A stretch of 64,000 nt of DNA from Candidatus Aenigmatarchaeota archaeon (lineage in GTDB: Archaea > Aenigmatarchaeota > Aenigmatarchaeia > GW2011-AR5 > JAGGXF01), in NCBI GenBank assembly GCA_021157845.1, contig JAGGVU010000006.1, positions 4,070 through 68,069 of the forward strand, written 5' to 3'. The notes beneath the pieces are model-generated. The model saw only the letters and a program-made list of their open reading frames with translations. It searched no databases and had not been told where the DNA came from. Positions 2,075 to 55,658 of this stretch are shown in pieces. A program made the translations under genes and the position numbers. Numbering within the stretch: the stretch's first letter is position 1; every line of letters starts with the position of its first letter.

Positions 2075-5000
2075 CTAAAAATGGAGCTTCAATATCTTTC
2101 CTTTTGATAATTTGGCAAAGGAAACCAAAGCTCCCAGCCCGACTAATGCTAATATTGCTATTAACGCTGAATGTTGAGATATAAATGGCATGCCTGTCGG
2201 CGACCAGAATCCTGGTGCTGCTGCTACAGGTTCGGTCACGCTGGCAGATACAGCCTTTCCTTCTTTAGTCATATATATGGCTTTTGTTTGCTCCCAATTT
2301 CCTGTTGTATCCTTTGCGTGCACGAAGATACATCTTCCAGCATAGTTTCCGGATACAGTAGTCATTACCTCTTCTAGGTTCTTGTCATTGTCAAATGAGC
2401 TATCAAACGGAAGCAATTTATATACAGAGCCTGTTCCATTATTAAATGAACCGTCTGCATTATACATAGAGGTTAAAGGTGTACAGTTTTCTCCTATATT
2501 TTGTCTAGTGTTTCCTGGTCCTATGTAAATTTCTGCATCTGTTATATTGGAACTTATGTCCTTAACAACGGCCTTGACTGTTGTTGTAGCTCCACCACCA
2601 TTTACAGTCGTATCATCCAGTGCAACTATTGTTTCTGGTGGTGTTCCATCAACTGCTAATGACATAGGTGCTGAAGTTGTTTTATGTCCTGCTTCGTCTT
2701 CTGCCTCAACTACTACACTATATGTTCCATCAACTCCTATCTTGTTTGCGCTTATTGTTCCTGAACCAGTACCAGTTAAATCAAAGTCTGCGAGTGTGTT
2801 TCCGTTTACATCTTTAACATATGCTTTTACATTCTTGATATTTGCCTCTGTTATCGTACAGCTTATATCTGCTGTCGGATTCACAGAATTTAGCGGATAG
2901 TATGATATAAGGTTCTTTGTTAATGAACACCCGCTAACACTAGGAGAGGTTGTATCAATTGTGAAGTTTGTTTTTCCATAGCCTGTTAAGCTCTGTTCTG
3001 GTGAATCAGCTATGTTTCCTGCTAAATCTGTACATTTTATATAATATTCGTGGAACCCTTCTGACAGTCCTGTCAACTGTGCGTAATGTGCAGCTGTTCC
3101 CTGACCATCTGTAAAGTCTGTATATGTTCCGCTCAAGCTTGTACTGTATTTGCAGTTTGTTGCTTCTGTTGTTATAACATTTAGGTTAACAGTTCCGCTG
3201 GATATATACTCATCCGATGGGCTTATATCAATTATAAGCGGCTTTGTAGTGTCAACTGTAAACACAATTACAGATGACGAATCCATTACATTTCCATTTA
3301 CATCTTTACATCTTACAAAAATTGCATTTGCCCCCTCTATTACTGTTCCTGCTGGCAAACTAATAGTCTTTGGTGTACCAGCTGTTGTTGTGAACTCATT
3401 TGCCTGCGGCATATTTGCAAATATCTTGTCATTTGTGTCCCATCTGCATGTTGCATCAACATCTGTTTTAACTGTAAATTCTGATGGGGTTGATGTCTGG
3501 TATCCTGATGGTCCGGTCGTTTCAATTGTAGGTGCTATTGAATCAATAGAAAATGTTGATGTATGTATATAATTGATATTTCCTGCCTTATCCTTACAGC
3601 CAAAGTATATGGTATAACTCCCATCCTGCTCAACTGTCTTTTGACCATAATGGTCTAATCCGTCAGATGTAGACATTAAATGATCCATGTTATCATACGT
3701 AACATCATTTGTGCTGAATCTACACGATGTCCACTCATCTGTGTGTACAAAGGTTGCAAACGATCTTGAGTTTTGTGCTCCACTAGGGGTTGCTCCACTT
3801 AAGACTGGAGGTGTTGTATCAACTGTCAAACTTCTTGAGCCTGACCAGCTTCCCCAGTTTCCTGCGTTATCCTGAGCTCTTACCTTCCATGTGTAGGTTC
3901 CTTCACCAAGATTATTGGTTGGGGCGAAACTTGTTGTGCCTGCTTGATACGAAGCGGTATCTATCATTATTTCATACTGACTTACTCCGCTTATCTCATC
4001 TGTTGCAGAGCCCCAGACAAATGTTGGTGTCTGATCATTCGTATAATAATTAACTTCTGGTGAAATTAATGCTGGCACCGAAGGTGGGGTTGTATCAACT
4101 ATAACAGTTAATAAGTTGGACCATTCTCCTTCGTTGCCTGCGCTGTCAACCGCTCTGATTCTATAATAATATGTTCCATCTGGTTTTCCGGTATATGATT
4201 TTGACGTTGTAAGACCGACACTTGTTATTACGCCGTTTTCCATAATGTCATATCTCAATATCCCGTTTGTATCGGTTGCCGGTGTCCAGCTTATTTGATA
4301 GCTTCCGTCTGTATCATAAGGTGAATTATCTATAGAAGCGCTTGCTGTTACAGTTGTCGGCTCCATCGTGTCTACAATTATATTTTCAATATTGGACCAC
4401 CCACTGCATAAGCCGACTTGGTCACATGCTCTAACTCTTCCATACCATGTTCCATCAGGAACTTCGCTTATTGAATATGAAAGACTGCTTGTTTTGCTTC
4501 CCAACACGCCTGTCGTAAATGTCTGATCCATACTGACTTCTCCTTTGTAATAGTCTATTCCTGAACCAGTTCCGTCATCTGAAGCAAACCAAGTCAATGT
4601 CAATACACCGTCATTGTCATATCCGTCTCCATCCAGATCTGATACGTCTAATATCGGAGGAGATGGTGGATTATTATCAGACACTATTTGTATTGTAGTT
4701 GAATCTCGGCAGTTTCCAATTGCATCACATCCTCTAACCTTTAGTGTATGAGCACCGTCAGCATAACTGCCCGTATTCCAAGGTGCTGTCCAACTATTGT
4801 AATATGATGTGTCATTATGTATCATAGTCCCATCTACATAAAATTCTACATATTGTGTTCCGCTAACAGCGTCACTTGCTATTGCTTCTATTGTAACAGT
4901 TCCTGTAGCAATGCCTTGATCTATCGGTTTTACAATAGCCATTGAAGCCATAGCTCTGTTGTCAACAACAACTGTTGTCATCTCAGAATATCCAACATTA

Positions 5001-8000
5001 CCAACAGAGTCGCTTGCTTTTGCCTGCAAGCCGTAAGCTAATCCGTCTGTTGCTAATGTAGTATCCCAGTTAAATGTACATGATGGTCCTGTGCAACTTG
5101 GATTGGTCCATGTTTGACCGCCATCTGTTGAAACTTCAGCTGTTGAATAATCTATATGTGAATCAGACATTGTGAATGTTATTTCAACAATTCCTTTAAC
5201 GAACTGATTGTTTGAAGGTGTTGTAATTGATATAGCAGGCGGTGTATTATCAATATCTATAGTTCGCAATGGATCTATAGTTACATGACCTGCATAGTCA
5301 ACCATGCTAACTCTTATATAATATGTTCCATCTGCAACTTCTGTTGTGTCCCAGTGTACCTGATATTGCCATTGTGAACCAACAGGAGTTTTGGAAGCAT
5401 CCACATTTATTTTGTACCATGGTCCTGAATTGCTTGTTGAATATTCAAAGTCTGTTGCAACTACATCATTGTCAGAAGTTGTTGCTGTTATTTCTATTGT
5501 TCCGCTTACTGGTGATGTAGGAACATTAACCGTGAAACTTGGTGCTGTGCAGTCAACTATTATAGGAACTTCAGTCGAAGTTAATGAATTTCCTTCTCCG
5601 TCTGTTGCAGTCGCTTTTAACTTCGTCGCTCCGGTATGACTACAGGCATCAAAGCTCGCTGTCCAAGGAGCACTTGAATCTGTTGAAATTGTGTGCCAGC
5701 TTCCATCATAATATTCAAATCCAACACTTGCCACACCGCTTAATCTATCAGCTGTAACAGCTTGTATGGTTGTTGTTCCAGTCAAGTATTGGTCATGATA
5801 AGGATATGTAATTGCAATTGATTCTGCTCCCGTGTTATCAACACTGACAACTTTAACTTCTGACTCTCCTAGGTTGCCTGCAACATCATTTATTTTTGCA
5901 ATTATCGTATGTTCACCATCCTGGTAAGATGCTGTGTTCCACGTATATGTACATGAAGTTGCTCCACAACCAGTTGGTGAAACAGATATTCCATCAATCA
6001 ATAGGTCTGCGGTTGAGGTATCAATTGCATTATCAGCATATGTGAATGTTATAGCTATCGAACCACTAACAAACGTTGTTGTTGGTGTTGTAATTGAAAC
6101 AACAGGAATTGTTCTGTCAACAGTTATGCTTTTAACAGCAGACCATGGTCCAACATTTCCAAGTTTATCTACTGCTCTCACTCTAGCAAACCATGTTCCA
6201 TCTGTTGGTATGTTATTGAAAGATGCGAACAACGATGTTATTGGACCACTGCTTAACACGCCTGTCGTAAATGTCGAATCCATACTGACTTCTGCCTCAT
6301 AATAGTCAACACCTATTCCAGTATCTGTTGCTGCTGGCCAAGTTACGCTTATATCTCCATCACAGTCATATCCAGCATTGCAATTTGAAGATTGTGATGC
6401 ATATATAGATATCTGGCTTGGTGCTGTGTTGTCAATACCTACTGTAACAATGTCAGATTCTTGACAATAATTATTTATATCGCAAGCATAGGCTGTGATA
6501 TCGTGTGACCCATCTAATACAGTTGTTGTATCCAGACTAATATTCCATTTTTCGTCGCTATGATCGTTGTCTGTTCCTATATATGTTCCGTCAATCCTGA
6601 ATGTTACATTCGCAACACCAGAAGCGTCCCATGTATCAGCTGTCAGCTGGACTGTACCAGTTAACCAGTCACCTTCTTCTGGGCTGACTACGTGAACTTC
6701 TGGAGGAATGGTATCAACTAATATAGCATCTATAACAACCTGATACAGGCTGTCTATAACTATTCCATCTTTTGTATCAGCTTCATAACCTGGCTTTGAT
6801 ATGTGTATGTGAACTGGGTTGTCCACAGGTCCTGATAGTGCATTCAACGGATATAAAACAACACCGTTTGGTCCGTCTTCCCAGCTGAAATCCGGCAACC
6901 ACCACTGTTCTATGCTTCTATTTACTGTGCTGTTCCAGCCGTTTTCTCCGTCTGTTATGATGAACGTGTTCGTGTAGCCCAATCCTGACAAGCCATAGTC
7001 CATAGGTGATATGAACAATCTCATAGCCATATCTCCTTCTGTTGGTGTGCACTTGTCAGGAAGTATGTCTATGTAATAGCCTGGCTTGAACGTGTAGGAG
7101 AATCCCGAACCCGTACAATAATCTCCATCTGACACCGCAATAGGCGTATAGCCAACACCGGGTTTATATACTCCTATGGTGTTCCACCGGGCGTAATACT
7201 TTGGGTCTCCCAAACCAGTTCCTGGACAAAATGCGAAGTCGTAGACACCATATTCATATTTTAATTGCTTATCAAAACTATACGATGTACAACCAAGCAA
7301 CGAAACTGGCATGACTGTTCCACCGTTCTCGACACATTCCTGATAAGTCTGAGGACCTGTTCCAACAAGTGTAGGTCCATCACTAACCAGTTCCACAGGT
7401 ATCCAGCAGAAGTATTGGTCTGAGTCTGAAGGTGGTAATGTATGTCCTGAATCCTCAACAACTACTGTAAATCCTTCAATTGGGTGGTCAAACTGGTCGT
7501 AAGCATTGACTCTTAATGAATATGGCATTCCTGAACATTGTTGAGAAACTACACCATCAACAGGCCCTGTTGGTGCAAATGTATCACAAGTGACATTTCT
7601 GCTGAAATTTAATGCGGTCTGGTAATTACTTGATAATTCAATGTCATCTAACGCCTCATCCGGTCGTGTTGATATTCCATGCTTAGATGTTCCCCTTGTT
7701 ACATAACCGTCTTTCTTGATTTCAAGATAATAATCGCAGTTATTACCAATCGCTGGTATGTAATATTTCTGGGTTATCGGGTCCCAAACATAATCCACAT
7801 GTGGAAATTCATCATCTGGATCTGGGTCATCATCATAATAATAATCAGGTAAACCATCACCAGTTTTATAAGGTGCATAACATACAGGTGGATTTGGATC
7901 TGATGGATCTATTGGTATATCTGGATTCAAAACAATCCTTGCATCATATATCCTATGATTATATTCTGTTGTCTTTTCGTCCCAGATATCTAATTTCAAT

Positions 8001-11000
8001 GTATACAATAATCCATCTCCGTTCAATCTCTGTGGCGTATCATCGTCACAGTATGTTGCATAGGTAGTGTAACCGCCTTGTGATGGATCCAACGAGAATC
8101 CTCCAGCGACGTTGTTCTCATTTTTGACGCAATGTCTATCATAATCACCCCACATTACTGTCTTCTGGACGTTCGGGTCAGGTGTGACCTCTATATCTTC
8201 GTCAACGTAACCCGGACCGTGTGCTGTTAATGTTATTGAGGACGTACCTTTTATTGGTAAGAATAGGTCTGTGTCCCCATCTCCTCTTGGGTCGCCATAA
8301 TGGCTAGAGGTACCAGCAGCGTAATTGCGGCCTGTAGGATCTGCAATTCTTGTAGGATCGCTCACGTCGACATCTGTCTCTCCTATGACGAGGCCACCAG
8401 TGGAATCTGCTATATCTAACTTAGTACCCAATTCGTTGTAGATGTCAACAACTCTTATTGTGAACGGATTGTAATATTCATGATAATATTGTGCTTGGTC
8501 TGTAATAGTATCGCTGTCATATTGGTATACATAACCATCTAGATACTCTCTCATATCTACAGCAACACTTGCCGAATTTCCAAATCCGTATGCATCTCCT
8601 GGGCTGTATGCCCAATACATATATTCATCATTAGAGTTATCAGCATCACAGTAGCCTGTTTCTATTGGTGAACCAACAGTTGTGCCTTCTGTGCATGTCT
8701 GCACACCACCATTTGTAACTTTGAGTTCGTATCCTTCCTTAGGGTTGTTTAATTCATCAGAAGCTTTAACTTTTATAGTGTAAAGCATGGTAATATCGTT
8801 CGTAGTGTCTGAAGATATAGACTCGTCATTAATTGGATAATCTACCCAGCCTGTCTTCTCATAGAGGAAATCATAAGTTCCTGAAGCCAGGTATAATCTA
8901 TAAGACCCTCCAGAGATTGTATTAGTCCACATAGTTGCGTCTCCTGATGAGGAGCCTTCCCTTGCTGAGACCAAAACATTTGTCAGCCCGGTGTTTTGGG
9001 CTTCTTCTGTCACTATTCCGTCTTTCAAAACATCTAAATCTTCTGTTATTGTTCCGCCTTTTGTACTGTCATCAAAAACATGGTAAATTATATAATTATT
9101 AGATATATCAGCGTCTGTTATTTTCTTGCAGAATCCTCCCGGCATATAATCATGTGTTCCAGAGTTATCATGCAAATATTGCAGGAAGAATTGTGCATAA
9201 TCCGCATTGCTATAAAATCCGTTATCTGATGGGTGAACTGTTTCTGAACTTAACTTTGTGCTTCCACAATTGTAAGGAGTTCCATCAGAGTCATAAATTT
9301 CTATTGTATCACTTCCGCCTTCAAGATTGGAATGTGCTTCGCCAATTACTTCACCGACATCCATTTCCCAGGCATTTCCGCCTGTCGCTGATGACGCAAC
9401 AGGCCACTCAAATACTTTCTTTCCGTTAGAATCGCAGAAAACTGCATAATATGTTGAGTCGTCTGCTTTCATGTAAACTGTGTAATCAGGTGAGCCACCT
9501 GTTTGTATTAAATCAATATCATGTAAGTTTGAATTAGATGCCACTTCTGTCTCAGCAGCACTCCAGCTTACAGAACATCCTTGTCCTGAAATTGTCCATA
9601 ATTCTACCCATCCGTTATTTAAGTGCTCATCAACATCTCCTGATAATGAATCAATATTATTGGTATAAGTCCCAGCTGTGCTCCAGTCTTCGCCATATAA
9701 TGTGAACTCAAGACTTCCGCTCACATAGTATTGAACATCAACAGAACCATCAGTTATTGTAAACAATTTATATACATGGTCTGTATCAAAGTCTGCCGTG
9801 TATGCATCGCTGCCATCAATGGCTCCGTTTTGGTCAAGGTCAGCAGCTACTTTTGTTATATCTGTTGTTGCTTTTCCTGTTTTCTCAACAACCAAATCTT
9901 TTGTTTGTGCATAATTTGCGCCAATTGTGAAACCGTTTCCTCTTGAAGCTAAACTGTCAGATGTTGTTGCTTTGATATAATATGTTGTTGAAGTTGGATT
10001 TGTCTGGTCTGCTTCAAAGTATTGTGTATAATCTGGTGTACTTGTTCCTGTTGGATTTACTGTCTCACTGCTCAATTTGTTGCTTCCGCAATCGATTGTA
10101 TCCCAGACTTCTATTGTTCCGCCATACAAATCTGAATGCGTGTCTCCAGATAATTTTCCAACATTAAATACATCACCATCCAAGCTTCCTGTATTTGTTT
10201 GTTCTTGGTCTCTTGTCAATACTACTGGATTAGTATGGGCATCGTACCACCAGTTTCCGTTCAATGCACTAACAGAATCAAAGTACATCGCATAAACTGA
10301 TGGGATTGAGCCATCTGTTTCGGCAAGTGCAATTGTCCATGGAGTTGCGTCATGTAATGTAATTGTCTTAATGTCATTGTGTGTTGTTCCGGTCAGTCTA
10401 TTATCCAAGTTTAGGGTTATCATATCTCCGCCTGCTATTGCATCGATAGCATTGTTTGCGTTGTTTGTATCAACATCTAATCTCCATGACACAAGCGAAG
10501 CAGAATCTGTCATTTTCAAATCTATATTGTCAACATCTATCGGTGTCGCCAATGAGTCATCTGACTCTATGAAATAAACTTCATAACTATCTAAACCAGT
10601 ATCTCCAGAGTCTGTGTAGAAGCTTGTTGAGCTTAATAATGTTCCGCCAATTCTATCTGTGTAAACATCAAATCCTGCATTGTTGAAATTATCATTTACT
10701 GTTCCAGACAATTTTGCAACATCTATTGTGAATGTTTGCCCGCCTGCCTGATCCGTAAAACTCCATTTTAATACAACGTTTCCAGATTTACAGAATAGAA
10801 TATCATAAGTTCTGGAGTCGTCTTCAAAATAAAGTGTATACGAACCACTTGATGATGTTGTTTGAGTGTAATATAATCCTCCGCATGCACCGTCTGCATA
10901 TGTACTAGGTGCGGTGCCATACTCAAGTTCAACAGAATCTATGTCAGTTGGTATGGTACCAGTCACTTTTGAGATATCATTTGTGTATGTCGCTTCTGAT

Positions 11001-13822
11001 GGGAAACTATCATCTAATGTTAGCAATAAGCTTGGAGTAGAATCATAATAATTAACATCAACATTGTTGTCCACTATTGTGAATAAATGATATTTATATT
11101 CAGAGCCTGTGCTAACAACTTGCGTATATGCGTCATTGTCATCTGGCAAAGAACCATCCCAGTCAACCGCAACGTTTGCTATGTCAGATGTTACAACACC
11201 GGTTTTATCAGCAACTAAATTTTGAACAGCTGTCCCGCCAGCATTTGTTGAAAATGGGTTGCCGCATGTTGAGAAAGTGTCTCCATTGTTCATTATCGTA
11301 TTTATGTAGTACTGCTCATAACTTGGAGTAGTTGTTTCAAAATATTGCATATAATCGTTTGTTCCTCCAATATATCCATCATCATTAGGTTGTCTGTCTT
11401 CTGAAGATAGTTTATTTGTGCATAAAGAATCAGCATAAACTTCTATGTTATCTGAGCCGTCTCCACTATTTTCTAAATTAGAATGTGCGTCACCGACTAG
11501 TTTTGCAACATTAAAGGTTGCACTATTAAGTGTGTTTGAGTTTCCAGTCCAGCCTGTTCTTGTTCTGCTCAAAACAAGATTAGGTGTGCCTGCTGTGTAA
11601 AGTTCGTCATAAACATCTAAATACCAGTTAGAGCCGGTTATAGAATCAAAGTACATTTTATAAGTGTGAGGCCAAGTCCCTGTGATTACTAATTTAACGT
11701 AATCTCCATTTGTTTGTTCACTCAAAATTATATAATTAACACTAATTGGAAGTGTTCCTGTCAGAGTGTAAATCATGTCAAGCGTGATGTCATCTCCACC
11801 AGAAATTGTATCGGCTTTGTCTCCGTCGCTCGGATTATTATCAACATCCATCCTGAGTGTATATTCACTTGACCCAGAGTCGTCTTTGAAGTAGACATCT
11901 ACATTTCCGTCGGATAAAACACCACCATCCGTGGTTGGTGTGCATTCAAAATAAGCATAATAAGAATCGTCATTCGCTCCGCTATTATCTGTCACAAAAT
12001 ATAATGAATTTAACGGAGTTCCAGGATATGAATCATAAATCCATACCGGTGAGGTGCCACCGGTGTTGAAATTTTCATCTATATTTCCAGATAATTTTGC
12101 AACATCTAGTTGAATATTAGATGCAAACATTTTTGTTCTTGTTAACACTGTTTGCGTTGAGTCACGAAATTCTATATCTGTATTGCCTGACAAATCGGAA
12201 TACATCCTATAATTTCCGCTTCCGTCTGGAGTTGTCTTTGCATCTTTGAAATCATCCCAAAATCCAGCATCTTGATCGATATCAGTTTGTATAAGAGTTA
12301 TATCAGTATGAACAGTTCCATATAGTTTATCTTCTGGGCTGTATAGTATTTCATCACCTGCTGAAGCAGATGAGCCATAAACCATTGTATCGTAAGTTGG
12401 GCCATCAATCTTTACATAAGAGTTTGCTAAACCACCTGTTGCATCAAAATATACCTCATATTCCCCTGTTGAATCATCTGGATCACCGGGATAAGACGGA
12501 TCGCTTATTTTGGTTGTAAACGAAGAGTCAGAATAAACTTCTATTTTATAACCTGTTTTCAAATCATCGTGGGCAGTCCCGTAATATTTTGCTAGGTCTA
12601 GTTGGATATCATGACTTGAACAGGTTGTACTGCTTGTATCAGGGATTGATAAAGATTTTGTGAACACTTCGCTGCCACTTTTCCAGAATTTTATTGTTCC
12701 AACAAAATTATCTTTTACATACAGAGCATAATTTCCGCTTCCGTCTGGAGTTGTTTTATATGTTAATGTTCCGTCGCTGATACTGACTTCATCTATATCT
12801 GTTGGTACAGTACCATATACCTTCACAACAGCGTCCTGCGAGCTAAAGCCTAATGACAATCCTTCAATTAAAGTTGGATTTGTCGCTGCAGTCGAATGTA
12901 AAGCCATTGTAATTATTCCAGAAGAAGGATTATCATAATAAAGGGTATAGTCATCATCAGAATCATCATAACAATCACCATCAGTTACGTAAGACATTCC
13001 TATGTTATTTCCATCAGAATCCCATACGTAGAGAATTGTACCATCAAAATCATCATGTAAATCTCCTTGTGCTTTCGTATCAGGTGCAAAAGTGGGATAA
13101 ACAGCAAAATTATTATAACCATTGGCTGAAGTTACGTTTATTATTCTTCCGGTTGATTTTGTTGCATCAAATTGACAGACATTTGTCTGGTCATTATCTA
13201 AATAAACGTAAATATTATTTGAAACAATACTTTCATCAATCGGATACCATTGGTCATATTCAATATTACTACCGCCGATACCTCTTAATTCAGTGTCTAA
13301 TCTCGTTGAGCCATGACAAACAAAAACATTATCAGAGTTTAGGTCTGAATGTAGATTTGTACCTTTAACTCGTGCTAAATCAATAACATAAGTTTGTCCT
13401 TCGGTCACACTTTTAGAATACCACGTTCTTAGTACACCAGTAGCAGTTCCAAGACAATAGTAGACATAAACTGTCTGCGAAGGGCTTGCTGTTAAACTAA
13501 AAGTAAGTGAATAATCAACATCATCGTCATAATTTGTATTTCCAACTCCACTTGTCAAAGCTAAAAGATTGGTCCCAGTATCTGCACTCCCATCACATGG
13601 TCCAGTTTGCGATGCATCATAAATTTCAATAGTATAACTAACATTTGTATCAGGCAAATCACCTCTTACAACAACATTAGTTGCTTGTGCAAAAACTGCA
13701 GAGCTAACGCTAATAAGGGTAAGCATGAAAACTGCAAATAACACCGCAAATTTAGTTGAATCAGTTTTATTTTCAAATGTGTTATTCATTTTCACACCTC
13801 CGTTAAATATGTTAAATATCAT
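2075..13822 (-). CDS. Giant modular cell-surface protein (3915 aa) with an N-terminal signal/TM segment, many repeated beta-rich modules, Ig/FN3-like ~100-aa repeats and a C-terminal TM anchor.
   Basis: Single 11.7-kb ORF with a GGAGGTG RBS 12 nt upstream of the ATG at 13822. The N-terminal hydrophobic segment is [23 protein letters not shown]. Repeated modules are visible in the translation (VAKLSG..NFN..G, KLSSE..., DNTPPxISITTP / DTTPPSV / [12 protein letters not shown] / [12 protein letters not shown]). The C-terminus is ...[43 protein letters not shown] (TM helix plus basic tail). Confidence 0.85.
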
Positions 13823-21605: not shown

Positions 21606-22517
21606 TTATTCGAACAAATCATTCACAGATGAACGCAATTCTCTTAAAAAGTTGGAAAATTTTGATATGGGTTTTTCTTTTGATTTTTCACTTTCATAAA
21701 CAAATTCCAGCAGCTCGCGGTAAATATCTAGTTTTGTATATGGAACAAAAGTCTCTATATTCGGGCAGAGGTCAATACCTATTATTTTTCTCGGTTTTTC
21801 CACTATATTGACAGAGGCAATAGATGTTTTCATCGCCTCTGCTGAGTCTATTGCAAGTTTTTTTACATCAGATGGGGCAGTTGTTCTATAAATTTTTCCA
21901 TTCCCAAAAAACATATCCCGCTTTTCTTCCGGCTTGCGCTTAATAGCTGAAATAATCCTATTTTCCACAACAAGCAATTGATAATAATCCGAATCAAAAT
22001 AATCTTCTATGTAAATGGGCGTATCAAAAGTTTTTAATGTGTCAAGCATGGCTCTGGCCTCTTTTTCTGAATTAGCAAACATTATGCCCCGCTCCTCAGA
22101 AGAAGCGCGCATGGTAATGGGAAAAGACAATCCGCTCTTTATAATTTCAGACGCTGATTTTGCTGAATCTACCATATACAGATCAGGTGTTGGAAGCCCT
22201 TCTTTTCTCAATAAGTGCATCTGTAAAAATCTGTCAGACCAGAAAAGAAATGATTGCGGTTTTATTGGGCTGTATAGAGGCAAGGACTTTAATAAAAAAT
22301 ATGCAAACAATGACCTCTTTTTAGGAATTCTTGGAAGAATAATATCAAATCTTGACAAATTACGCCCTCTATATGTTATAACCAGTTTCTTTTCCTCCTT
22401 AAGGCATATTCTCGAATAAGGCACATATAAAACAGCGTCAAAGAGGCGTTTGGCGTGATTAACCAGCTTTATATTTGATTTTGTTTTTCTTTCATCACCA
22501 ACAATGCATAAGCGCAT
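21606..22517 (-). CDS. RimK-like ATP-grasp paralog lacking the Gly-rich ATP loop (possible pseudo-enzyme)
   Basis: Collinear similarity to the 294-aa RimK at 23923..24807 (LYVPYSRICLKE / DIILPRIP / LPTPDLYMV), but GGRGV is replaced by SSEERGIMF. Confidence 0.5.
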   Translation of the reverse strand: MRLCIVGDERKTKSNIKLVNHAKRLFDAVLYVPYSRICLKEEKKLVITYRGRNLSRFDIILPRIPKKRSLFAYFLLKSLPLYSPIKPQSFLFWSDRFLQMHLLRKEGLPTPDLYMVDSAKSASEIIKSGLSFPITMRASSEERGIMFANSEKEARAMLDTLKTFDTPIYIEDYFDSDYYQLLVVENRIISAIKRKPEEKRDMFFGNGKIYRTTAPSDVKKLAIDSAEAMKTSIASVNIVEKPRKIIGIDLCPNIETFVPYTKLDIYRELLEFVYESEKSKEKPISKFSNFLRELRSSVNDLFE

Positions 22518-25298: not shown

Positions 25299-26309
25299 TT
25301 AAGATGATAAAAAATCATACACCGCCTTTTGCATTCCAGCTGTCTTGTATTTTTTATATTTATCAATGGTCTTGAGAATATATAATATTATCTCTGCTCC
25401 TTTTTTAGGATAATATTCGTTTATAAAAGCATCTGACTCGATTTGCAAAACGATTGGATTTCCCTTTAAAATAAACCTTTTGGGTGCAAAAGAAACCGAG
25501 CCTGAAAAAATGCGCTCAACTGTTATTTTTGGGCTACCTATGTTTTTCATTGTATTTTTAACAGCTCTTAAAAAATTATTTTTTGTAAAATTGGACCGCA
25601 TTTCTTCAAAATATTTTTTTTCTGCGTTCTTTTTTATTATATTTACCTCTTTTGATAAAATCCATGAATATTTTTTCTTGACATCAGCCAAAGATGACTG
25701 CTTCAATTCAAGGGAAGATAAAATTTGTTGCTCTCTGTTTATTATTTCAAGTTGAAAGTTTTTTGCTATTTTTCTAAAAAAAAGATTATACTTTTTATTG
25801 GCAATGCCTATTATTTTTTTCAGCACCTTTTTATCTATCCCAATACCATTAAATGTTATAAAATCCATTATGCTTGGATAATTTTTCAGAAGTGCAAACT
25901 TTCTATGAATTATTACAAATATATTGCCACTTGACTTAGCGCTGGACCAAAAGTTTGAATAGATTTTCTTTTTTTTATTATAATCAGCATCACTTTTTGC
26001 AACCCAGGCATATTTTGACAAATATGCCTTTGATATGGCATTTGGGTTCATTTGTATTTTTTTCCACATGCTCAATGCTTCCTGCTTTGGAGGGATATCT
26101 CTGTTCAGGTCTATCCCGTAAAATGGGTCACGCGGCATATTAGAAATTAGAAGCGAGCCGTTCATCTTTTCAAAACAGAAAGAAGCTACCCTATCTGCTC
26201 CGTCATCTCTCCCCTCACCGCCCAACGCTGGACCAGAGTGCGGAACAATAAATACAGGGCCTTCTCCCTTTTTATATATACTAAAGCCCGGCCTGAATGC
26301 GAAATACAT
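25299..26309 (-). CDS. Hypothetical protein (336 aa) with an N-terminal PHSG..GGEGRDDGADRVA motif and a Lys-rich C-terminal half; possibly an amidohydrolase-like enzyme
   Basis: ORF only; weak motif resemblance. Confidence 0.4.
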   Translation of the reverse strand: MYFAFRPGFSIYKKGEGPVFIVPHSGPALGGEGRDDGADRVASFCFEKMNGSLLISNMPRDPFYGIDLNRDIPPKQEALSMWKKIQMNPNAISKAYLSKYAWVAKSDADYNKKKKIYSNFWSSAKSSGNIFVIIHRKFALLKNYPSIMDFITFNGIGIDKKVLKKIIGIANKKYNLFFRKIAKNFQLEIINREQQILSSLELKQSSLADVKKKYSWILSKEVNIIKKNAEKKYFEEMRSNFTKNNFLRAVKNTMKNIGSPKITVERIFSGSVSFAPKRFILKGNPIVLQIESDAFINEYYPKKGAEIILYILKTIDKYKKYKTAGMQKAVYDFLSS

Positions 26310-26477
26310 GATTAATTATTGAAGTCTGGAGAATAAAAAATTAGTGGGGCCAGGAGGATTTTCACCAACCTTTTCTTTGATATTAAGTTTCTTTTCGAAA
26401 GGGTTGGGTTTGAACCCCCATTAACAGGTTTCTTCTTTTTCATCTGGTCGTCAGACCATCAACGCTCCAGTCAGATT

Positions 26478-26600
26478 GACGCTTTTTTTAAAAAGGGTCA
26501 ATAGTTTTTTTTGTTGTTTTTCCGTTGACGCTTTTTTTTAAAAAGGGTCAATAGTTTTTTTTGTTGTTTTTCCGTTGACGCTTTTTTTTAAAAAGGGTCA
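26478..26600. repeat. Tandem direct repeat, ~50-bp unit x 2.5 (family A: GACGCTTTTTTT(T)AAAAAGGGTCAATAGTTTTTTTTGTTGTTTTTCCGTT)
   Basis: Near-identical copies at about 26478-26527, 26528-26577 and a partial copy to about 26600; they differ by one T in a T7/T8 run. Confidence 0.9.
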
Positions 26601-26643
26601 GCTGGAGCCTGCCATCCATCTATCCCTTTAAGCTTTTTCACGC

Positions 26644-26764
26644 GTTAGCAAAAAGGGTTTTGTGCTTAGTTCGTTTTTCCGTTAACGCTTTTTGCATTAG
26701 CAAAAAGGGTTTTGTGCTTAGTTCGTTTTTCCGTTAACGCTTTTTGCATTAGCAAAAAGGGTTA
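26644..26764. repeat. Tandem direct repeat, 52-bp unit x 2.3 (family B: TTAGCAAAAAGGGTTTTGTGCTTAGTTCGTTTTTCCGTTAACGCTTTTTGCA), related to family A
   Basis: Identical copies at about 26645-26696 and 26697-26748 plus a partial third. Shares the CCGTT[GA]ACGCTTTTT...AAAAAGGGT core with family A. Confidence 0.9.
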
Positions 26765-26831
26765 CCAGGTTAGATTATGGCCCCACGTTAACAAATATGT
26801 AAAAGAAATATTTATATAACTTTATTGACAT

Positions 26832-27911
26832 TCATATAACTTTTATAAGGTCTGTACCGGGCTTTTCTCCAATTTTAGGAATTTTAAATAATCTATCTAC
26901 AGATGGCTTTTTTTTCATTCTATCTTCTAAATCCCTTTTATTTTTAGCCTCAATTCTATTAATATAGTATAGATAATCCCAGAGAAGCGATTCCTGATTG
27001 TACTCTGGCAGTGGCTCTTTTCCCCTTTTACCTGTTTTCAAAACATTAAATCTGAGCTTGTCTGCGTAGTCAACACACTCCTTTGTGGGATATAAAAATA
27101 TTGGCGCAGAAATAAATTTTTTATCTTCCTCTTTAAGTGATTGATAAAAAATTTCATGCTCTGCAGCAACAATATGCTTGCAGTTGACAAATGGGTATCT
27201 TCTCTGCCTGTGGTTTATGTGCCAGAAATATCTTGAGCTTTCGCACGGACAAAGGCCGTGAAAATCAACTGAATAATCATAAATATCCAGCCCATATTCA
27301 TCTTTGTTTCCTCCAGCTTCTGCATCAGATGATATAATTGGCTGGGATAATATTGCTAACAAAAAAGTCCGTTCACCTGAATCTGAAGGAACTTCTGCAA
27401 CGAATTCATGTGTACATTCTTTAAAAGTGTTTATTGTGATTTTTTCATCTGTTAAATCTGAGTTAAAAAATTCGTATAATTCTGCTCCTTTTATTAGATA
27501 AGAAAGTGTGTTAACAACATAACATTTATAGCTGGATTGATGGCCAAACATAGAATAAACCCGTCTCTTTTCAGATTTCTCAAAATCCTTTAGATTATTC
27601 CTAACCAAATGGGACAGATAGTTTCTTATCGGCCCATTTTTATCACGAACCTTAACATTCCTTTTCTTTCCCTTGGTTTTCCATTTTTCCGGTGTTATTT
27701 TATTTAAAGCTCTTTCTAAAAAACTCTTTGGAACAAATTCATAATCTTTTGGTACTACAAAAAATTCATCTTCCTCTAGTTCAGATATGACTTTTACAAT
27801 ATTCCTTGGTATTGGGTTATCTATATCTATTTTTTCTTTGCCTTCCTTTATCTGACTAACATTCCAAGGCTCAAACCATTTTTCTCTTGGCAAATCTGTA
27901 TCTATTATCAT
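26832..27911 (-). CDS. Hypothetical protein with a SWIM-type zinc-finger-like motif (CxC-x20-CxH)
   Basis: GLCPCESSRYFWHINHRQRRYPFVNCKHIVAAEH; no other recognisable domain. Confidence 0.45.
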   Translation of the reverse strand: MIIDTDLPREKWFEPWNVSQIKEGKEKIDIDNPIPRNIVKVISELEEDEFFVVPKDYEFVPKSFLERALNKITPEKWKTKGKKRNVKVRDKNGPIRNYLSHLVRNNLKDFEKSEKRRVYSMFGHQSSYKCYVVNTLSYLIKGAELYEFFNSDLTDEKITINTFKECTHEFVAEVPSDSGERTFLLAILSQPIISSDAEAGGNKDEYGLDIYDYSVDFHGLCPCESSRYFWHINHRQRRYPFVNCKHIVAAEHEIFYQSLKEEDKKFISAPIFLYPTKECVDYADKLRFNVLKTGKRGKEPLPEYNQESLLWDYLYYINRIEAKNKRDLEDRMKKKPSVDRLFKIPKIGEKPGTDLIKVI

Positions 27912-45076: not shown

Positions 45077-45270
45077 TGGGCCCGACGGGATTCGAATTCG
45101 CGGGCTGCATTACAGCAATGCGGTGCAGCCTCCCGCGACACCCGGCTTAAAAGGCCGGTGCTCTAGCCAGATTTCCCGAAACAATTACGCAGGTAATATG
45201 CATCTTTTCTCCAGAGCTTTGATCTCTTTGATTGGCGATTGAGTCAAAGATCCGCCTGAGCTACGGGCCC
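45077..45270 (-). tRNA. tRNA-Lys (anticodon UUU) with two non-canonical introns (D-loop and T-arm)
   Basis: Minus strand: GGGCCCG-TA-GCTC-AG[~87-nt intron]TCTGGCT-AGAGC-A-CCGGC-CTTTTAA-GCCGG-GTGTC-GCGGG[35-nt intron]TTCGAAT-CCCGT-CGGGCCC-A. Confidence 0.7.
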
Positions 45271-45273
45271 AAG

Positions 45274-45441
45274 CGCCCTAGCCGGGATTTTCACCAACCT
45301 TTTCTTTTCCCATCCAAGGCTTTTCTTTTTTAAAAGAAAAGGGTTGGATTTGAACCCGGGTCGCAGCCTTTCTGCTTTTGGTAAACCTTTTCAAAAGGCT
45401 GGTCGACAGGGCTACATGCTAGTCCACTACACCACCAGGGC
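45274..45441 (-). tRNA. tRNA-Asp (anticodon GUC) with an anticodon-loop intron and a T-loop intron
   Basis: GCCCTGG-TG-GTGT-AGTGGACTA-GCAT-G-TAGCC-CTGTCG[intron]A-GGCTG-CGAC-CCGGG-TTCAAAT[intron CCAACCC...GGTGAAAAT]CCCGG-CTAGGGC-G. Only 3 nt separate it from tRNA-Lys. Confidence 0.65.
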
Positions 45442-45613: not shown

Positions 45614-45731
<118 letters not shown>

Positions 45732-45943
45732 TAAACAATTTAAGCCGAAATACATTTAAACCTTTCGGAACCCGTTTTTGTGTGGTGATGCAAGAAATAT
45801 CTGCAGATATTAGAAACCTGTATCAAATATTTTGCTTAAAACATTAAGTAAAAGCTCACGCAGTTGCTGCTTATAAAAATATGGAGTTTGCCATCGTAAA
45901 ACAAACTAGACAAAAATGCGTAGTTACATAATTAAAAAAAAAT

Positions 45944-47829: not shown

Positions 47830-48030
47830 AGCCCCAGGCGAGAGTTGAACTCGCGACCTTTACCTTTCCAAGGGACAACCTGTGGTTCCCCTTTTTGTTT
47901 TTGCTAAAGATTTTACGCGAAGCGTAAAATGCTTGTTACCAAGGTAACGCTCTGCCAATTTCCCTGACTGCTTTCCGCTGGCGCTTTTTTTTGTTCGCGA
48001 AGCGAAAAGGGCCAACTGAGCTACTGAGGC
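47830..48030 (-). tRNA. tRNA with D-loop and anticodon-loop introns; anticodon probably GGU (Thr) if the intron is at 37/38, alternative UGG (Pro)
   Basis: GCCTCAG-TA-GCTC-AG[~58-nt intron]TTGGCA-GAGC-G-TTACC-TTGGTA[~70-nt intron]A-GGTAA-AGGTC-GCGAG-TTCAACT-CTCGC-CTGGGGC-U. Confidence 0.5.
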
Positions 48031-55022: not shown

Positions 55023-55658
55023 TTAAATTTTGAACCCGTGTTTTCCTTTCAGCGGAACAAAACGATACCAGCCTAAAAAATGTTCTTCAAAGGTATCGCC
55101 TTTTTTTATTATTTTCACCAGTTCCTGCACATCGTAGCCAACAGGAATAATCATTATGCCGCCATCTTTAAGCTGCTTCTTCAATGGCTCTGGTACGTCT
55201 GGTGAAGCTGCTGTTACAATTATCCTCTCATATGGCGACTCTTTAGCATAGCCCAAAGAGCCGTCTCCATAAATAACCTTCACATTTGCATAACCTGCAT
55301 ATTTAAGATTTTTACTGGCAAAATCTGCCAGCTCTTTCACCTGCTCTATTGTGACAATCTTGCCTTTTTTACCGACAATTTCAGCAAGAATAGCAGCCTG
55401 ATAGCCAGAACCTGTTCCAATCTCAAGTATTTTTTGTCCACGCTTCGGCTCTAAAGCTTCTGTCATGTCAGCAACAGTAAGTGGCTGGGAAATCGTTTGG
55501 CCATATCCTATTGGCAATGGCTCATTTACATAAGCATAGCGCTTTAAATCAAGTGGAACAAAATTCTCTCGTTTAACTTTTCTGAAAGCTTGTATGACTT
55601 CACGTGTTTTGAGATGTTTTGTTTTTATCAGCTCATTTATCAGCGAATCTTTATCCAT
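55023..55658 (-). CDS. pcm: Protein-L-isoaspartate O-methyltransferase (PIMT)
   Basis: SAM-binding motif ILEIGTGSGYQAA and the PIMT-specific QTISQP and ASPDVPEPL motifs. Confidence 0.9.
   Translation of the reverse strand: MDKDSLINELIKTKHLKTREVIQAFRKVKRENFVPLDLKRYAYVNEPLPIGYGQTISQPLTVADMTEALEPKRGQKILEIGTGSGYQAAILAEIVGKKGKIVTIEQVKELADFASKNLKYAGYANVKVIYGDGSLGYAKESPYERIIVTAASPDVPEPLKKQLKDGGIMIIPVGYDVQELVKIIKKGDTFEEHFLGWYRFVPLKGKHGFKI

Follow-up and report, generated by a model that had tools for sequence, protein, structure and literature searches.

The stretch analysed here, 64,000 nt of contig JAGGVU010000006.1 from an Aenigmatarchaeota archaeon (in the following called the window), contains at positions 26310–26831 a 522-bp gap between two minus-strand open reading frames (ORFs) without Pfam domains, and this gap raises the question of what kind of gene holds the two strands of a tRNA acceptor stem far apart with two blocks of tandem repeats in between. 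The sequence-only reading that preceded this analysis had offered two answers, a tRNA with giant repeat-laden introns or a split tRNA with arrayed promoters that serve its 3′ half. The first answer is the one the evidence supports: with a probability of roughly 0.85, an Aenigmatarchaeota-like DPANN archaeon has its tRNA-Trp(CCA) gene here, made as one precursor, interrupted by three bulge-helix-bulge (BHB) introns and carrying the repeats as duplications internal to its introns. This reading is based on the gene anatomy, the conservation of the exons, covariation, the BHB geometry and the intron families, all of which are observed.

The gene extends from 26345 to 26784 on the minus strand and was found by in-silico splicing followed by ARAGORN; of its 440-nt precursor body, 73 nt are exonic and 367 nt intronic, i.e., introns make up 83% of the gene length. 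The acceptor 5′ strand GGGGCCA occupies 26784–26778 and the 3′ strand TGGCCCC 26352–26346, followed by the discriminator A at 26345; this 7-bp pairing had been recognized correctly from the sequence alone, although the 5′ strand had been placed 2 nt off, at 26780–26786. The 5′ end reads GGGGCCA-UA-AUCU-AACCUGGUA, corresponding to acceptor strand, U8, D-stem strand and a typical archaeal D-loop. Exon 1 (GGGGCCAUAAUCUAACCUGGUA, 26763–26784, tRNA positions 1–21) comprises the acceptor 5′ strand, U8, the D-stem 5′ strand and the D-loop, and fits the family consensus GGGGYYRUARYYUAACCUGGUA derived from 22 metagenome loci. Exon 2 (GGAUGGCAGGCUCCAG, 26602–26617, positions 22–37) follows after 145 nt and reads GGAU-G-GCAGG-CUCCAG, supplying the D-stem 3′ strand, G26, the anticodon-stem 5′ strand and the loop with the anticodon CCA. 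The D-stem 3′ strand had been proposed to be AGAU, which would leave five extra bases before the anticodon stem; the actual strand is GGAU at 26617–26614, 4 nt downstream, which fits and matches the GGAC/GGAU of the related genes. Exon 3 (ACCUGUUAAUGGGGGUUCAAA, 26409–26429, positions 38–59) reads A-CCUGU-UAAU-GGGGG-UUCAAA and starts 172 nt after exon 2, and exon 4 (UCCUCCUGGCCCCA, 26345–26358, positions 60–73 with the discriminator A73) reads U-CCUCC-UGGCCCC-A and starts another 50 nt downstream. The T-arm GGGGGTTCAAACCC of the sequence-only reading is real with respect to the 5′ T-stem strand and six loop bases, but it is not the complete arm, which is interrupted by a third, 50-nt intron that had escaped notice.

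Removal of the three introns joins exons of 22, 16, 21 and 14 nt to the 73-nt sequence GGGGCCAUAAUCUAACCUGGUAGGAUGGCAGGCUCCAGACCUGUUAAUGGGGGUUCAAAUCCUCCUGGCCCCA, a canonical tRNA that is called tRNA-Trp(CCA) by ARAGORN, and the repeats lie wholly in introns 1 and 2. All 21 cloverleaf pairs are formed (7-bp acceptor, 4-bp D-stem, 5-bp anticodon stem and 5-bp T-stem), and the product carries U8, A14, G18G19, U33, a T-loop UUCRANY, the anticodon CCA, A73 and G1-C72. A73 together with G1-C72 constitutes the archaeal/eukaryal Trp identity. Already in the precursor, whose fold has a z-score of −6.5 relative to shuffles, the minimum free energy structure holds the acceptor helix, the D-stem and the BHB of intron 3.

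The unspliced locus is not recognized as a tRNA, neither by ARAGORN, with or without the intron option, nor by Rfam (gathering score; E ≤ 10), and both tools find no tRNA anywhere in the 64-kb window. This failure of the standard tRNA models is expected for a gene with three introns, two of them non-canonical, and as two of the introns are inflated by tandem hairpin modules, standard tRNA finders miss it. The missing covariance-model match on unspliced DNA would also fit the view that the acceptor pairing is coincidental and that an intergenic minisatellite happens to lie beside a tRNA fragment. As a guard against hand-picked exons, the spliced product was scored with a profile hidden Markov model (HMM) built from 12 related tRNA-Trp genes, the window sequence being left out. 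It reached 67.4 bits, whereas none of 20,000 artificial splices, each joining four randomly chosen, ordered segments from the same 551 nt, exceeded 30.5 bits; the 12 related genes score 68–82 bits on this HMM, in-sample. The exon set is therefore not a chance pick: four ordered segments rebuild a tRNA 37 bits above the best random splice, the product fits the covarying cloverleaf of the 12 relatives, and a BHB is located exactly at the T-loop junction. Coincidental pairing beside an unrelated minisatellite, a possibility that the sequence-only reading had itself raised, is for all practical purposes excluded by the covariation and the random-splice test.

The related genes were obtained in a metagenome scan with a degenerate exon-1 pattern that yielded 22 loci, 5 of them tRNA-Pro and 17 tRNA-Trp; the latter include duplicates and one truncated gene, leaving 12 distinct relatives that were aligned with the window gene (n = 13). 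After splicing, all 12 are exactly colinear with the 73-nt product. In the alignment, the cloverleaf is paired in 98.9% of the cells and 12 of the 21 pairs change on both sides, values far above those of shifted or shuffled controls. Two compensated pairs are unique to the window and both span introns, namely C5-G68 between exons 1 and 4 and A10-U25 between exons 1 and 2. In most of the loci L090–L099 and L103, the tRNA-Trp gene appears to have as its downstream neighbour a convergent gene that, by visual inspection, looks like protein-L-isoaspartate O-methyltransferase. The corresponding methyltransferase-like gene of the window is located at 55023–55658, far from tRNA-Trp, suggesting that the tRNA-Trp neighbourhood was rearranged in this lineage. 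A search of loci anchored at the gene for elongation factor 2 (EF-2) in 80 DPANN genomes gave no homologue of the neighbouring genes and no tRNA-Trp exons, with the exception of a Woesearchaeota tRNA-Trp (L033, 5939–6075), which has a 63-nt canonical intron and, as in the window, is located downstream of EF-2, at a distance of ~2.2 kb.

The three introns differ in how closely their junctions follow the BHB consensus. Intron 3 (26359–26408, minus strand, 50 nt) interrupts the T-loop at 59/60 and shows a perfect hBHBh′ motif, i.e., two 3-nt bulges on opposite strands, set between an outer (5 bp), a central (4 bp) and an inner helix (6 bp): ggggg-UUCA-[AA|C]-ccaacc ... gguugg-UGAA-[AA|U]-ccucc. 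A strict BHB scan, applied to the region without bias, ranked this intron first, the other matches being U/A low-complexity artefacts within the repeats. The strict scan returned no BHB at the boundaries of the repeat units either, and the units as independent nested introns were rejected. Of the three introns, the strict scan thus recovered intron 3 alone, and introns 1 and 2, whose motifs are present in relaxed form only, were placed by a relaxed scan together with the relatives. Intron 1 (26618–26762, minus strand, 145 nt) is located at the D-loop/D-stem junction 21/22 with the relaxed motif CUGG[UA|A]cccuuu ... aaagggAUAG[AU|G], and intron 2 (26430–26601, minus strand, 172 nt) occupies the canonical site 37/38 with a helix-bulge-helix (hBH) motif, ggcagg-CUCC[AG|C] ... 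GAAG[AA|A]-ccuguu, in which the anticodon stem acts as outer helix of 7 bp. The junction products agree with uninterrupted relatives: GGUA|GGAU of intron 1 equals their GGUAGGAC/U, and UUCAAA|U of intron 3 equals their uninterrupted sequence, with the spliced T-arm GGGGGUUCAAAUCCUCC (GGGGGUUCAAA|UCCUCC) being that of L106. Moreover, L092, L094/L102 and L103 have introns of 13–22 nt at 21/22, and L094 shares the context ACAG[AU|G]. A T-loop intron is present in none of the 12 other tRNA-Trp genes, and the copy in the window is best read as a recent gain from an intron family that is described below. Multiple introns per tRNA gene are known: a 2014 review describes non-canonical BHB introns at sites such as 20/21, 22/23 and 59/60, the last of these being well established, and genes with as many as three introns, among them three-intron tRNAs in Crenarchaeota (PMC4090602). 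The same review gives 11–129 nt as the size range of archaeal tRNA introns, which introns 1 (145 nt) and 2 (172 nt) exceed (PMC4090602). For DPANN archaea, splicing enzymes of broad specificity were reported, endonucleases with an L3 loop were associated with increased disruption of tRNA genes, and undetected disrupted tRNA genes were predicted for their genomes (PMC5829648).

A further comparison is that with a second strain, in which the orthologous locus (L108, contig Ga0164310_10004360) shares a flanking gene and the promoter with the window, the identity over 8.2 kb being 97.1%. None of the 73 exon bases differs between the strains; apart from one substitution upstream of the promoter, the differences within the locus fall into the introns. 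In intron 1, both full copies of the repeat unit differ by a 4-nt indel (52 to 48 nt), and in intron 2 both full copies differ by two indels, of 2 and 8 nt, and by four substitutions (50 to 40–41 nt). The copies of an array thus share strain-specific changes, showing that the arrays evolve in concert, and with respect to the copy-number variation that had been envisaged between related genomes, the arrays of 48-nt and 40–41-nt units in L108 keep the 2.3–2.5 copies seen in the window. Intron 3 of L108 carries a 27-nt insertion and substitutions, and its inner helix CCAACC/GGUUGG has become CAAAUC/GGUUUG, i.e., one C-G pair was replaced in a compensatory manner by A-U and another by U.G. A further copy of the locus, in the metagenome contig Ga0187538_156235 of the Joint Genome Institute (JGI), is identical to the window base for base.

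These data bear on the view that the locus is a decaying tRNA-Trp pseudogene invaded by insertions, with the working tRNA-Trp encoded elsewhere. This view would account for the failure of ARAGORN and the Rfam tRNA model, for the two junctions out of three that are imperfect BHBs and for U5 tracts inside the gene, and the inspection covered 64 kb of the genome. However, exons that stay constant, a BHB that is preserved and intron interiors that change fast are what is predicted for a functional gene that is spliced. The exons are identical at 73 of 73 bases in a strain that differs at 1.8% of the aligned positions and at many intron positions, the 21 stem pairs are intact with lineage-specific changes compensated, promoter and terminator are intact and conserved, and a compensatory change keeps the intron-3 helix. 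Furthermore, tRNA-Asp, tRNA-Lys and tRNA-Thr of the window are interrupted in a similar way, and in the metagenome of L108 only one such gene turned up with the degenerate exon-1 pattern. Decay of the gene is therefore considered quite improbable.

The two repeat arrays exist exactly as the sequence-only reading had described them. Array 1 (26645–26763, minus strand; 2.3 copies of 52 nt, 100% match) is located in intron 1, its first base as delimited by Tandem Repeats Finder (TRF) overlapping the last base of exon 1, and array 2 (26476–26600, minus strand; 2.5 copies of 50 nt, 98% match) is located in intron 2. With TRF scores of 238 and 243 and copies arranged head-to-tail, they are the only strong tandem arrays within the window. 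According to the folds of the units, that of intron 1 forms the hairpin CUUUUUGC-UAAU-GCAAAAAG and that of intron 2 the hairpin GACCCUUUUU-AAA-AAAAAGCGUC, each followed by an unstructured A-rich tail. Both units align along their length with the common core AAAAAGCGUYAACGGAAAAAC, resulting in the module consensus RNCCCUUUUU-loop-AAAAAGCGYYARCGGAAA plus A-rich tail. The module is also present once in the D-loop intron of tRNA-Thr (GCCCUUUUCGC...AAAAAAGCGCCAGCGGAAAG, by module alignment), where a pyrimidine-pyrimidine mismatch occupies the stem position that is also mismatched in copies from the Aenigmatarchaeota contig JACPJW010000001 (L026). In L026, the module directly follows stop codons of protein genes, at 6959–7000 (GGCCCTTTCTTTT-TGG-AAAAGAAAGCGCC-TGCGGAAAG) and, in a second copy, at 22085–22125 (GACCCTTTTTCTT-CCA-AGAAAAAGTGTC-TACGGAAAAAG); these copies could be terminator-like or represent a dispersed hairpin element. 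Within the window, the perfect-stem form occurs only in introns of tRNA-Trp and tRNA-Asp. A genome-dispersed element resembling repetitive extragenic palindromic (REP) sequences was rejected, as the CCCTTT hairpin within the window is confined to tRNA introns, and so was a viral origin, as the repeat core, scanned against viral contigs, had three single matches there, all judged to be due to chance. No description of tandem hairpin-module arrays inside tRNA introns was found in the literature searched.

The arrays are best explained as internal duplications of one hairpin module from an intron family common to other tRNA genes. They lie outside the proposed splice-site helices, except for the first copy in intron 1, whose CCCUUU forms the inner BHB helix, and the repeats would be discarded together with the introns. 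Fast turnover by slippage or unequal recombination would keep the copies within one array identical, the simplest mechanism for the concerted changes being contraction and re-expansion via the flanking partial copy. The repeats are assumed to be neutral in this scheme.

A different view is that the repeats are functional, as a protein-binding platform in the precursor or in excised circular introns, by attenuation at the U5 tracts, or as an actively spreading element; this would add to the model of a tRNA gene with introns and not replace it. It is in accordance with such a function that the only two strong arrays in 64 kb occur together in a single gene and consist of one and the same module, that 2.3–2.5 copies are kept in both strains despite the changed unit sequences, that the mismatch hairpin recurs in the tRNA-Thr D-loop intron and after two L026 stop codons, and that a T-loop intron family is common to tRNA-Trp, tRNA-Asp and the tRNA-Asp of the related locus L019. 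On the other hand, unit length and tail vary between the strains (52 to 48 nt and 50 to 40–41 nt), the 12 related tRNA-Trp genes work without any repeat, and within the window the module is found nowhere outside tRNA introns; with two strains compared, the shared copy number may also be due to chance. A function of the repeats is accordingly a minority possibility.

Upstream of the tRNA-Trp gene, a predicted promoter consisting of a transcription factor B recognition element (BRE) and a TATA box, AAAGTTATATAAATA, is located at 26809–26823 (minus strand), −39 to −25 from G1; it has the form AAAG-TTATATAA with a purine-rich BRE and is identical in L108. A lone 5S rRNA gene at 45615–45728 (minus strand; Rfam, 83.9 bits) has its promoter at 45753–45766, reading GAAAGG-TTTAAATG at −38 to −25, which is the same geometry as that at tRNA-Trp. 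Archaeal transcription terminates at oligo-T runs, and a T6 run at 26335–26340 (minus strand), 5 nt past the discriminator and identical in L108, is the likely terminator. A single precursor of ~450 nt would extend from the BRE/TATA element at 26823–26809 to the T6 run at 26340–26335. Its three introns would be cut out by the archaeal BHB pathway, i.e., by splicing endonuclease and RNA ligase: with the introns of 145 nt (21/22), 172 nt (37/38) and 50 nt (59/60) removed, the four exons would be joined into the 73-nt tRNA.

This organization has to be weighed against a split tRNA, in which the units TTGACCC-T5A8-GCG would serve as internal promoters for the 3′ part and the two halves would be joined in trans. 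The motifs underlying this idea, GGGATAGATGGATGG and TTGACCC-TTTTTAAAAAAA(A)-GCG, are indeed present as quoted, T5A8 is similar to TTTAAAT, the TATA box in front of the 5S gene, and split tRNAs exist in DPANN archaea, namely in Nanoarchaeum equitans (PMC4090602). However, T5A8 occurs only in the units of intron 2, the homologous units of intron 1 having GCUAAUGC and lacking a TATA-like core; the purine-rich BRE of the Trp and 5S promoters is missing; and T5A8 constitutes the stem-loop of the conserved RNA hairpin. For these reasons, the arrayed promoters were rejected, while weak binding of the TATA-binding protein at the T5A8 units persists as a weak possibility. Moreover, the exons are colinear on one strand and 50–172 nt apart, with a single promoter and a single T6 run; a transcript started at T5A8 would miss exons 1 and 2, which this locus produces in any case; and complementary leader sequences, as present in split halves that are joined, are lacking. 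A split tRNA is thus regarded as very unlikely, and one continuous, cis-spliced tRNA-Trp precursor as the better explanation.

Next to the repeats, intron 2 contains a sequence complementary to the anticodon loop. In box C/D RNAs, the base to be 2′-O-methylated pairs with the fifth nucleotide upstream of box D or D′. The anti-anticodon guide CUGGAGCG with the D′-like box UUGA (26459–26470, minus strand) shows this spacing: CUGGAGC pairs with G31–G37 and places C34 opposite the fifth nucleotide upstream of UUGA. A C′-like box AGAUGAA (26439–26445, minus strand) is separated from the D′-like box by the hairpin UGGUC-UGAC-GACCA. The element is conserved in all 15 canonical introns of tRNA-Trp genes that were examined, including one from Woesearchaeota: UGGAG and GA at +10/+11 (the xUGA D′-like box) are invariant, and a RAUGA C′-like box follows 4–15 nt after the D′-like box in 15/15. 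In the Woesearchaeota locus L033, the guide element reads UUGGAGCG-AUGA ... GAUGAU. By analogy, the guide next to the D′/C′-like kink-loop (K-loop) most likely directs 2′-O-methylation of C34, as does the Haloferax tRNA-Trp intron, a C/D guide for C34 and U39 (PMC7714728). The segment 5′ of the guide comprises 132 nt in the window and 111 nt in L108, compared to 3–13 nt in most relatives and 79 nt in L106, and it is in this segment that the repeats of intron 2 are inserted.

Several points weigh against the interpretation as a functional three-intron tRNA-Trp gene with neutral repeats. Transcription, splicing (both cleavage and ligation) and aminoacylation of the tRNA are steps that we infer. 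The central helix of intron 1 has only 3/4 pairs, next to an inner helix of 6 bp; that of intron 2, CUCC/GAAG, likewise has 3/4 pairs owing to a C34.A mismatch, and no inner helix is adjacent to it. That such relaxed motifs are substrates for the endonuclease of this organism is a prediction from their sequence. The 3′ element GAAG-NN|A, and hence the C34.A mismatch, is found in 11/15 related tRNA-Trp introns and the canonical intron of tRNA-Asp in the window is also without inner helix, so the relaxed form looks normal for the lineage. The genes for the splicing endonuclease and for RtcB are not in the window. The sense strand of the gene contains six U5 tracts, and such tracts could act as weak or premature terminators for archaeal RNA polymerase. 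Terminal C (RUGAUGA) and D (CUGA) boxes and a second guide, for position 39, were looked for in intron 2, and none was found. The guide is for this reason termed a half C/D-like element; a full box C/D RNA was rejected. Intron 2 does start with a CUGA, but the relatives do not conserve it. Regarding the repeats, the equal copy number of 2.x in both strains could mean selection. Finally, 64 kb of the genome were seen, and a second, simpler tRNA-Trp gene may exist elsewhere in it.

The tRNA-Trp gene is not alone. All intergenic gaps were scanned for an acceptor pairing combined with U8, A14, GG and a T-loop half, which revealed exactly four plausible full-length tRNA genes in the window, Trp, Asp, Lys and Thr, all on the minus strand; the other matches are internal sub-pairings in the Asp-Lys gap. 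Each of the four has at least two introns and is detectable only after in-silico splicing, suggesting that interruption is this genome’s way of encoding tRNAs. The tRNA-Asp(GUC) gene (45274–45441, minus strand) is located ~170 nt downstream of the 5S rRNA gene, and its spliced 73 nt are called tRNA-Asp. Its canonical intron of 34 nt (45370–45403) has a perfect central helix CUGU/GCAG, and its second intron of 61 nt (45288–45348), at T-loop position 59/60, has a perfect BHB and belongs to the sequence family of Trp intron 3, both introns sharing the 5′ end (C/U)CCAACCCUUU and the 3′ end AAAGAAAAGGUUGGUGAAAA. The tRNA-Lys(UUU) gene (45077–45270, minus strand) starts 3 nt after tRNA-Asp; it has, with approximate junctions, a D-loop intron of ~84 nt and a T-arm intron of ~35 nt after GCGGG, roughly at 53/54, and 116 of 180 trial splices were called tRNA-Lys(ttt). 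The 5S gene probably heads a 5S/tRNA-Asp/tRNA-Lys cluster. The tRNA-Thr(GGU) gene (47830–48030, minus strand) has a D-loop intron of ~54 nt and an anticodon-loop intron of ~70 nt, and its anticodon assignment hinges on the exact junction. The tRNA-Asp/tRNA-Lys pair is shared by the Aenigmatarchaeota contig JAGGXF010000039 (L019, 1–310; 79% EF-2 identity), where tRNA-Asp carries a T-loop intron of the Trp intron-3 family and tRNA-Lys three introns including the conserved T-arm intron. At its end, the Asp intron of L019 is more similar to Trp intron 3 of L108 than is the Asp intron of the window.

With respect to known systems, the closest are the multi-intron tRNA genes of Crenarchaeota/Thermoproteales and other archaea, which were reportedly described by Marck and Grosjean in 2003 and by Sugahara in 2008 (reviewed in PMC4090602). 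As in these, the exons are colinear, one canonical site is combined with two non-canonical sites including 59/60, one BHB is strict and two are relaxed, and standard finders miss the gene; the host is however a DPANN archaeon, two introns measure 145 and 172 nt, 83% of the gene is intron and two introns carry hairpin arrays. In Haloferax volcanii and further Euryarchaeota, the intron of tRNA-Trp is reported, in work of Clouet d’Orval from 2001 and of Singh from 2004 (cited in PMC7714728 and PMC4090602), to provide a box C/D guide for Cm34 and Um39. It is inserted in the same tRNA at the same site 37/38 and likewise places a complement of the anticodon loop beside a D′-type box with the spacing for C34, whereas the window intron has only a degenerate D′/C′-like half (UUGA, AGAUGAA) and no guide for position 39, and its part 5′ of the guide is expanded by repeats. 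Split and tri-split tRNAs of Nanoarchaeum equitans, also a DPANN archaeon, and Caldivirga maquilingensis have BHB-compatible breaks as well, including 37/38, but the pieces in the window are contiguous and ordered behind one promoter for cis-splicing, with neither separate genes nor complementary leaders. Prokaryotic minisatellites, REP sequences and bacterial interspersed mosaic elements (BIMEs) resemble the arrays in having short, imperfectly palindromic tandem units that change in concert, and hairpins 3′ of stop codons occur in L026; in contrast to REP/BIME, the units are arranged head-to-tail and do not alternate, are confined to tRNA introns in the window, and no transposase was seen. 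Large-scale transposition of tRNA introns in Thermoproteales was reported by Fujishima et al. in 2010, as summarized in the review (PMC4090602). Near-identical introns in different tRNAs (Trp intron 3 and Asp; Trp unit and Thr) are common to both cases and the transposition mechanism is equally unexplained in both; the differences are that another phylum is concerned, that the introns of the window are found at the same structural site in different tRNAs, and that the module is amplified in tandem.

The genes of the window (CDP-archaeol synthase, aEF-2, ThiC, RNA polymerase subunits, S7 and S12) are archaeal and the GC content is ~35%. The closest EF-2 genes in GTDB representative genomes are those of Candidatus Aenigmatarchaeota metagenome-assembled genomes with at most 79% identity, suggesting a DPANN archaeon without close sequenced representative. 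The EF-2 match extends over 2.6–2.9 kb in many DPANN relatives (L009, L010, L026–L028 and others) compared to 2.17 kb in the window, which suggests an insertion, possibly an intein, in the relatives. The ORFs flanking tRNA-Trp are located at 26832–27911 and 25299–26309, both on the minus strand and without a Pfam domain. For the upstream ORF of 359 aa, no homologue but itself was found among 5.8 billion proteins, which makes it unusable for finding orthologous loci, and several metagenome contigs of this organism end inside or beside it. A giant ORF of 3915 aa (2075–13822, minus strand), adjacent to a 478-aa protein with beta-helix and TSP3 repeats, is probably a DPANN-type giant surface protein.

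As a summary, the gene is unusual in its intron load, intron size and repeat architecture, but does not represent an element of a new class. It extends what is known of archaeal tRNA introns, in size to 145 and 172 nt and in architecture to internal arrays that evolve in concert. The four tRNA genes of the window that are invisible to ARAGORN and Rfam are concrete cases of the missing DPANN tRNAs that were predicted (PMC5829648), and the combination of exon patterns with a BHB scan provides a recipe for finding such hidden tRNAs. The conserved guide suggests that intron-guided formation of Cm34 in tRNA-Trp extends from Euryarchaeota to DPANN archaea. The two strains with 97% identity, the relatives without T-loop intron and the paralogous introns in tRNA-Asp and tRNA-Thr form a natural series that can be used to study gain, movement and expansion of archaeal tRNA introns, the mechanism of which is still unexplained. 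It is a speculative and on balance doubtful idea that the hairpin module and the T-loop intron constitute a self-propagating BHB-intron element of Aenigmatarchaeota, which would move between D- and T-loop sites of tRNA genes, amplify in tandem and possibly also reach the 3′ ends of protein genes, as in L026. If this were true, excised and probably circular introns bearing the repeats, or the U5 tracts, might be regulatory, and the tRNA-Trp gene would be a case of intron gain and growth caught in the act.

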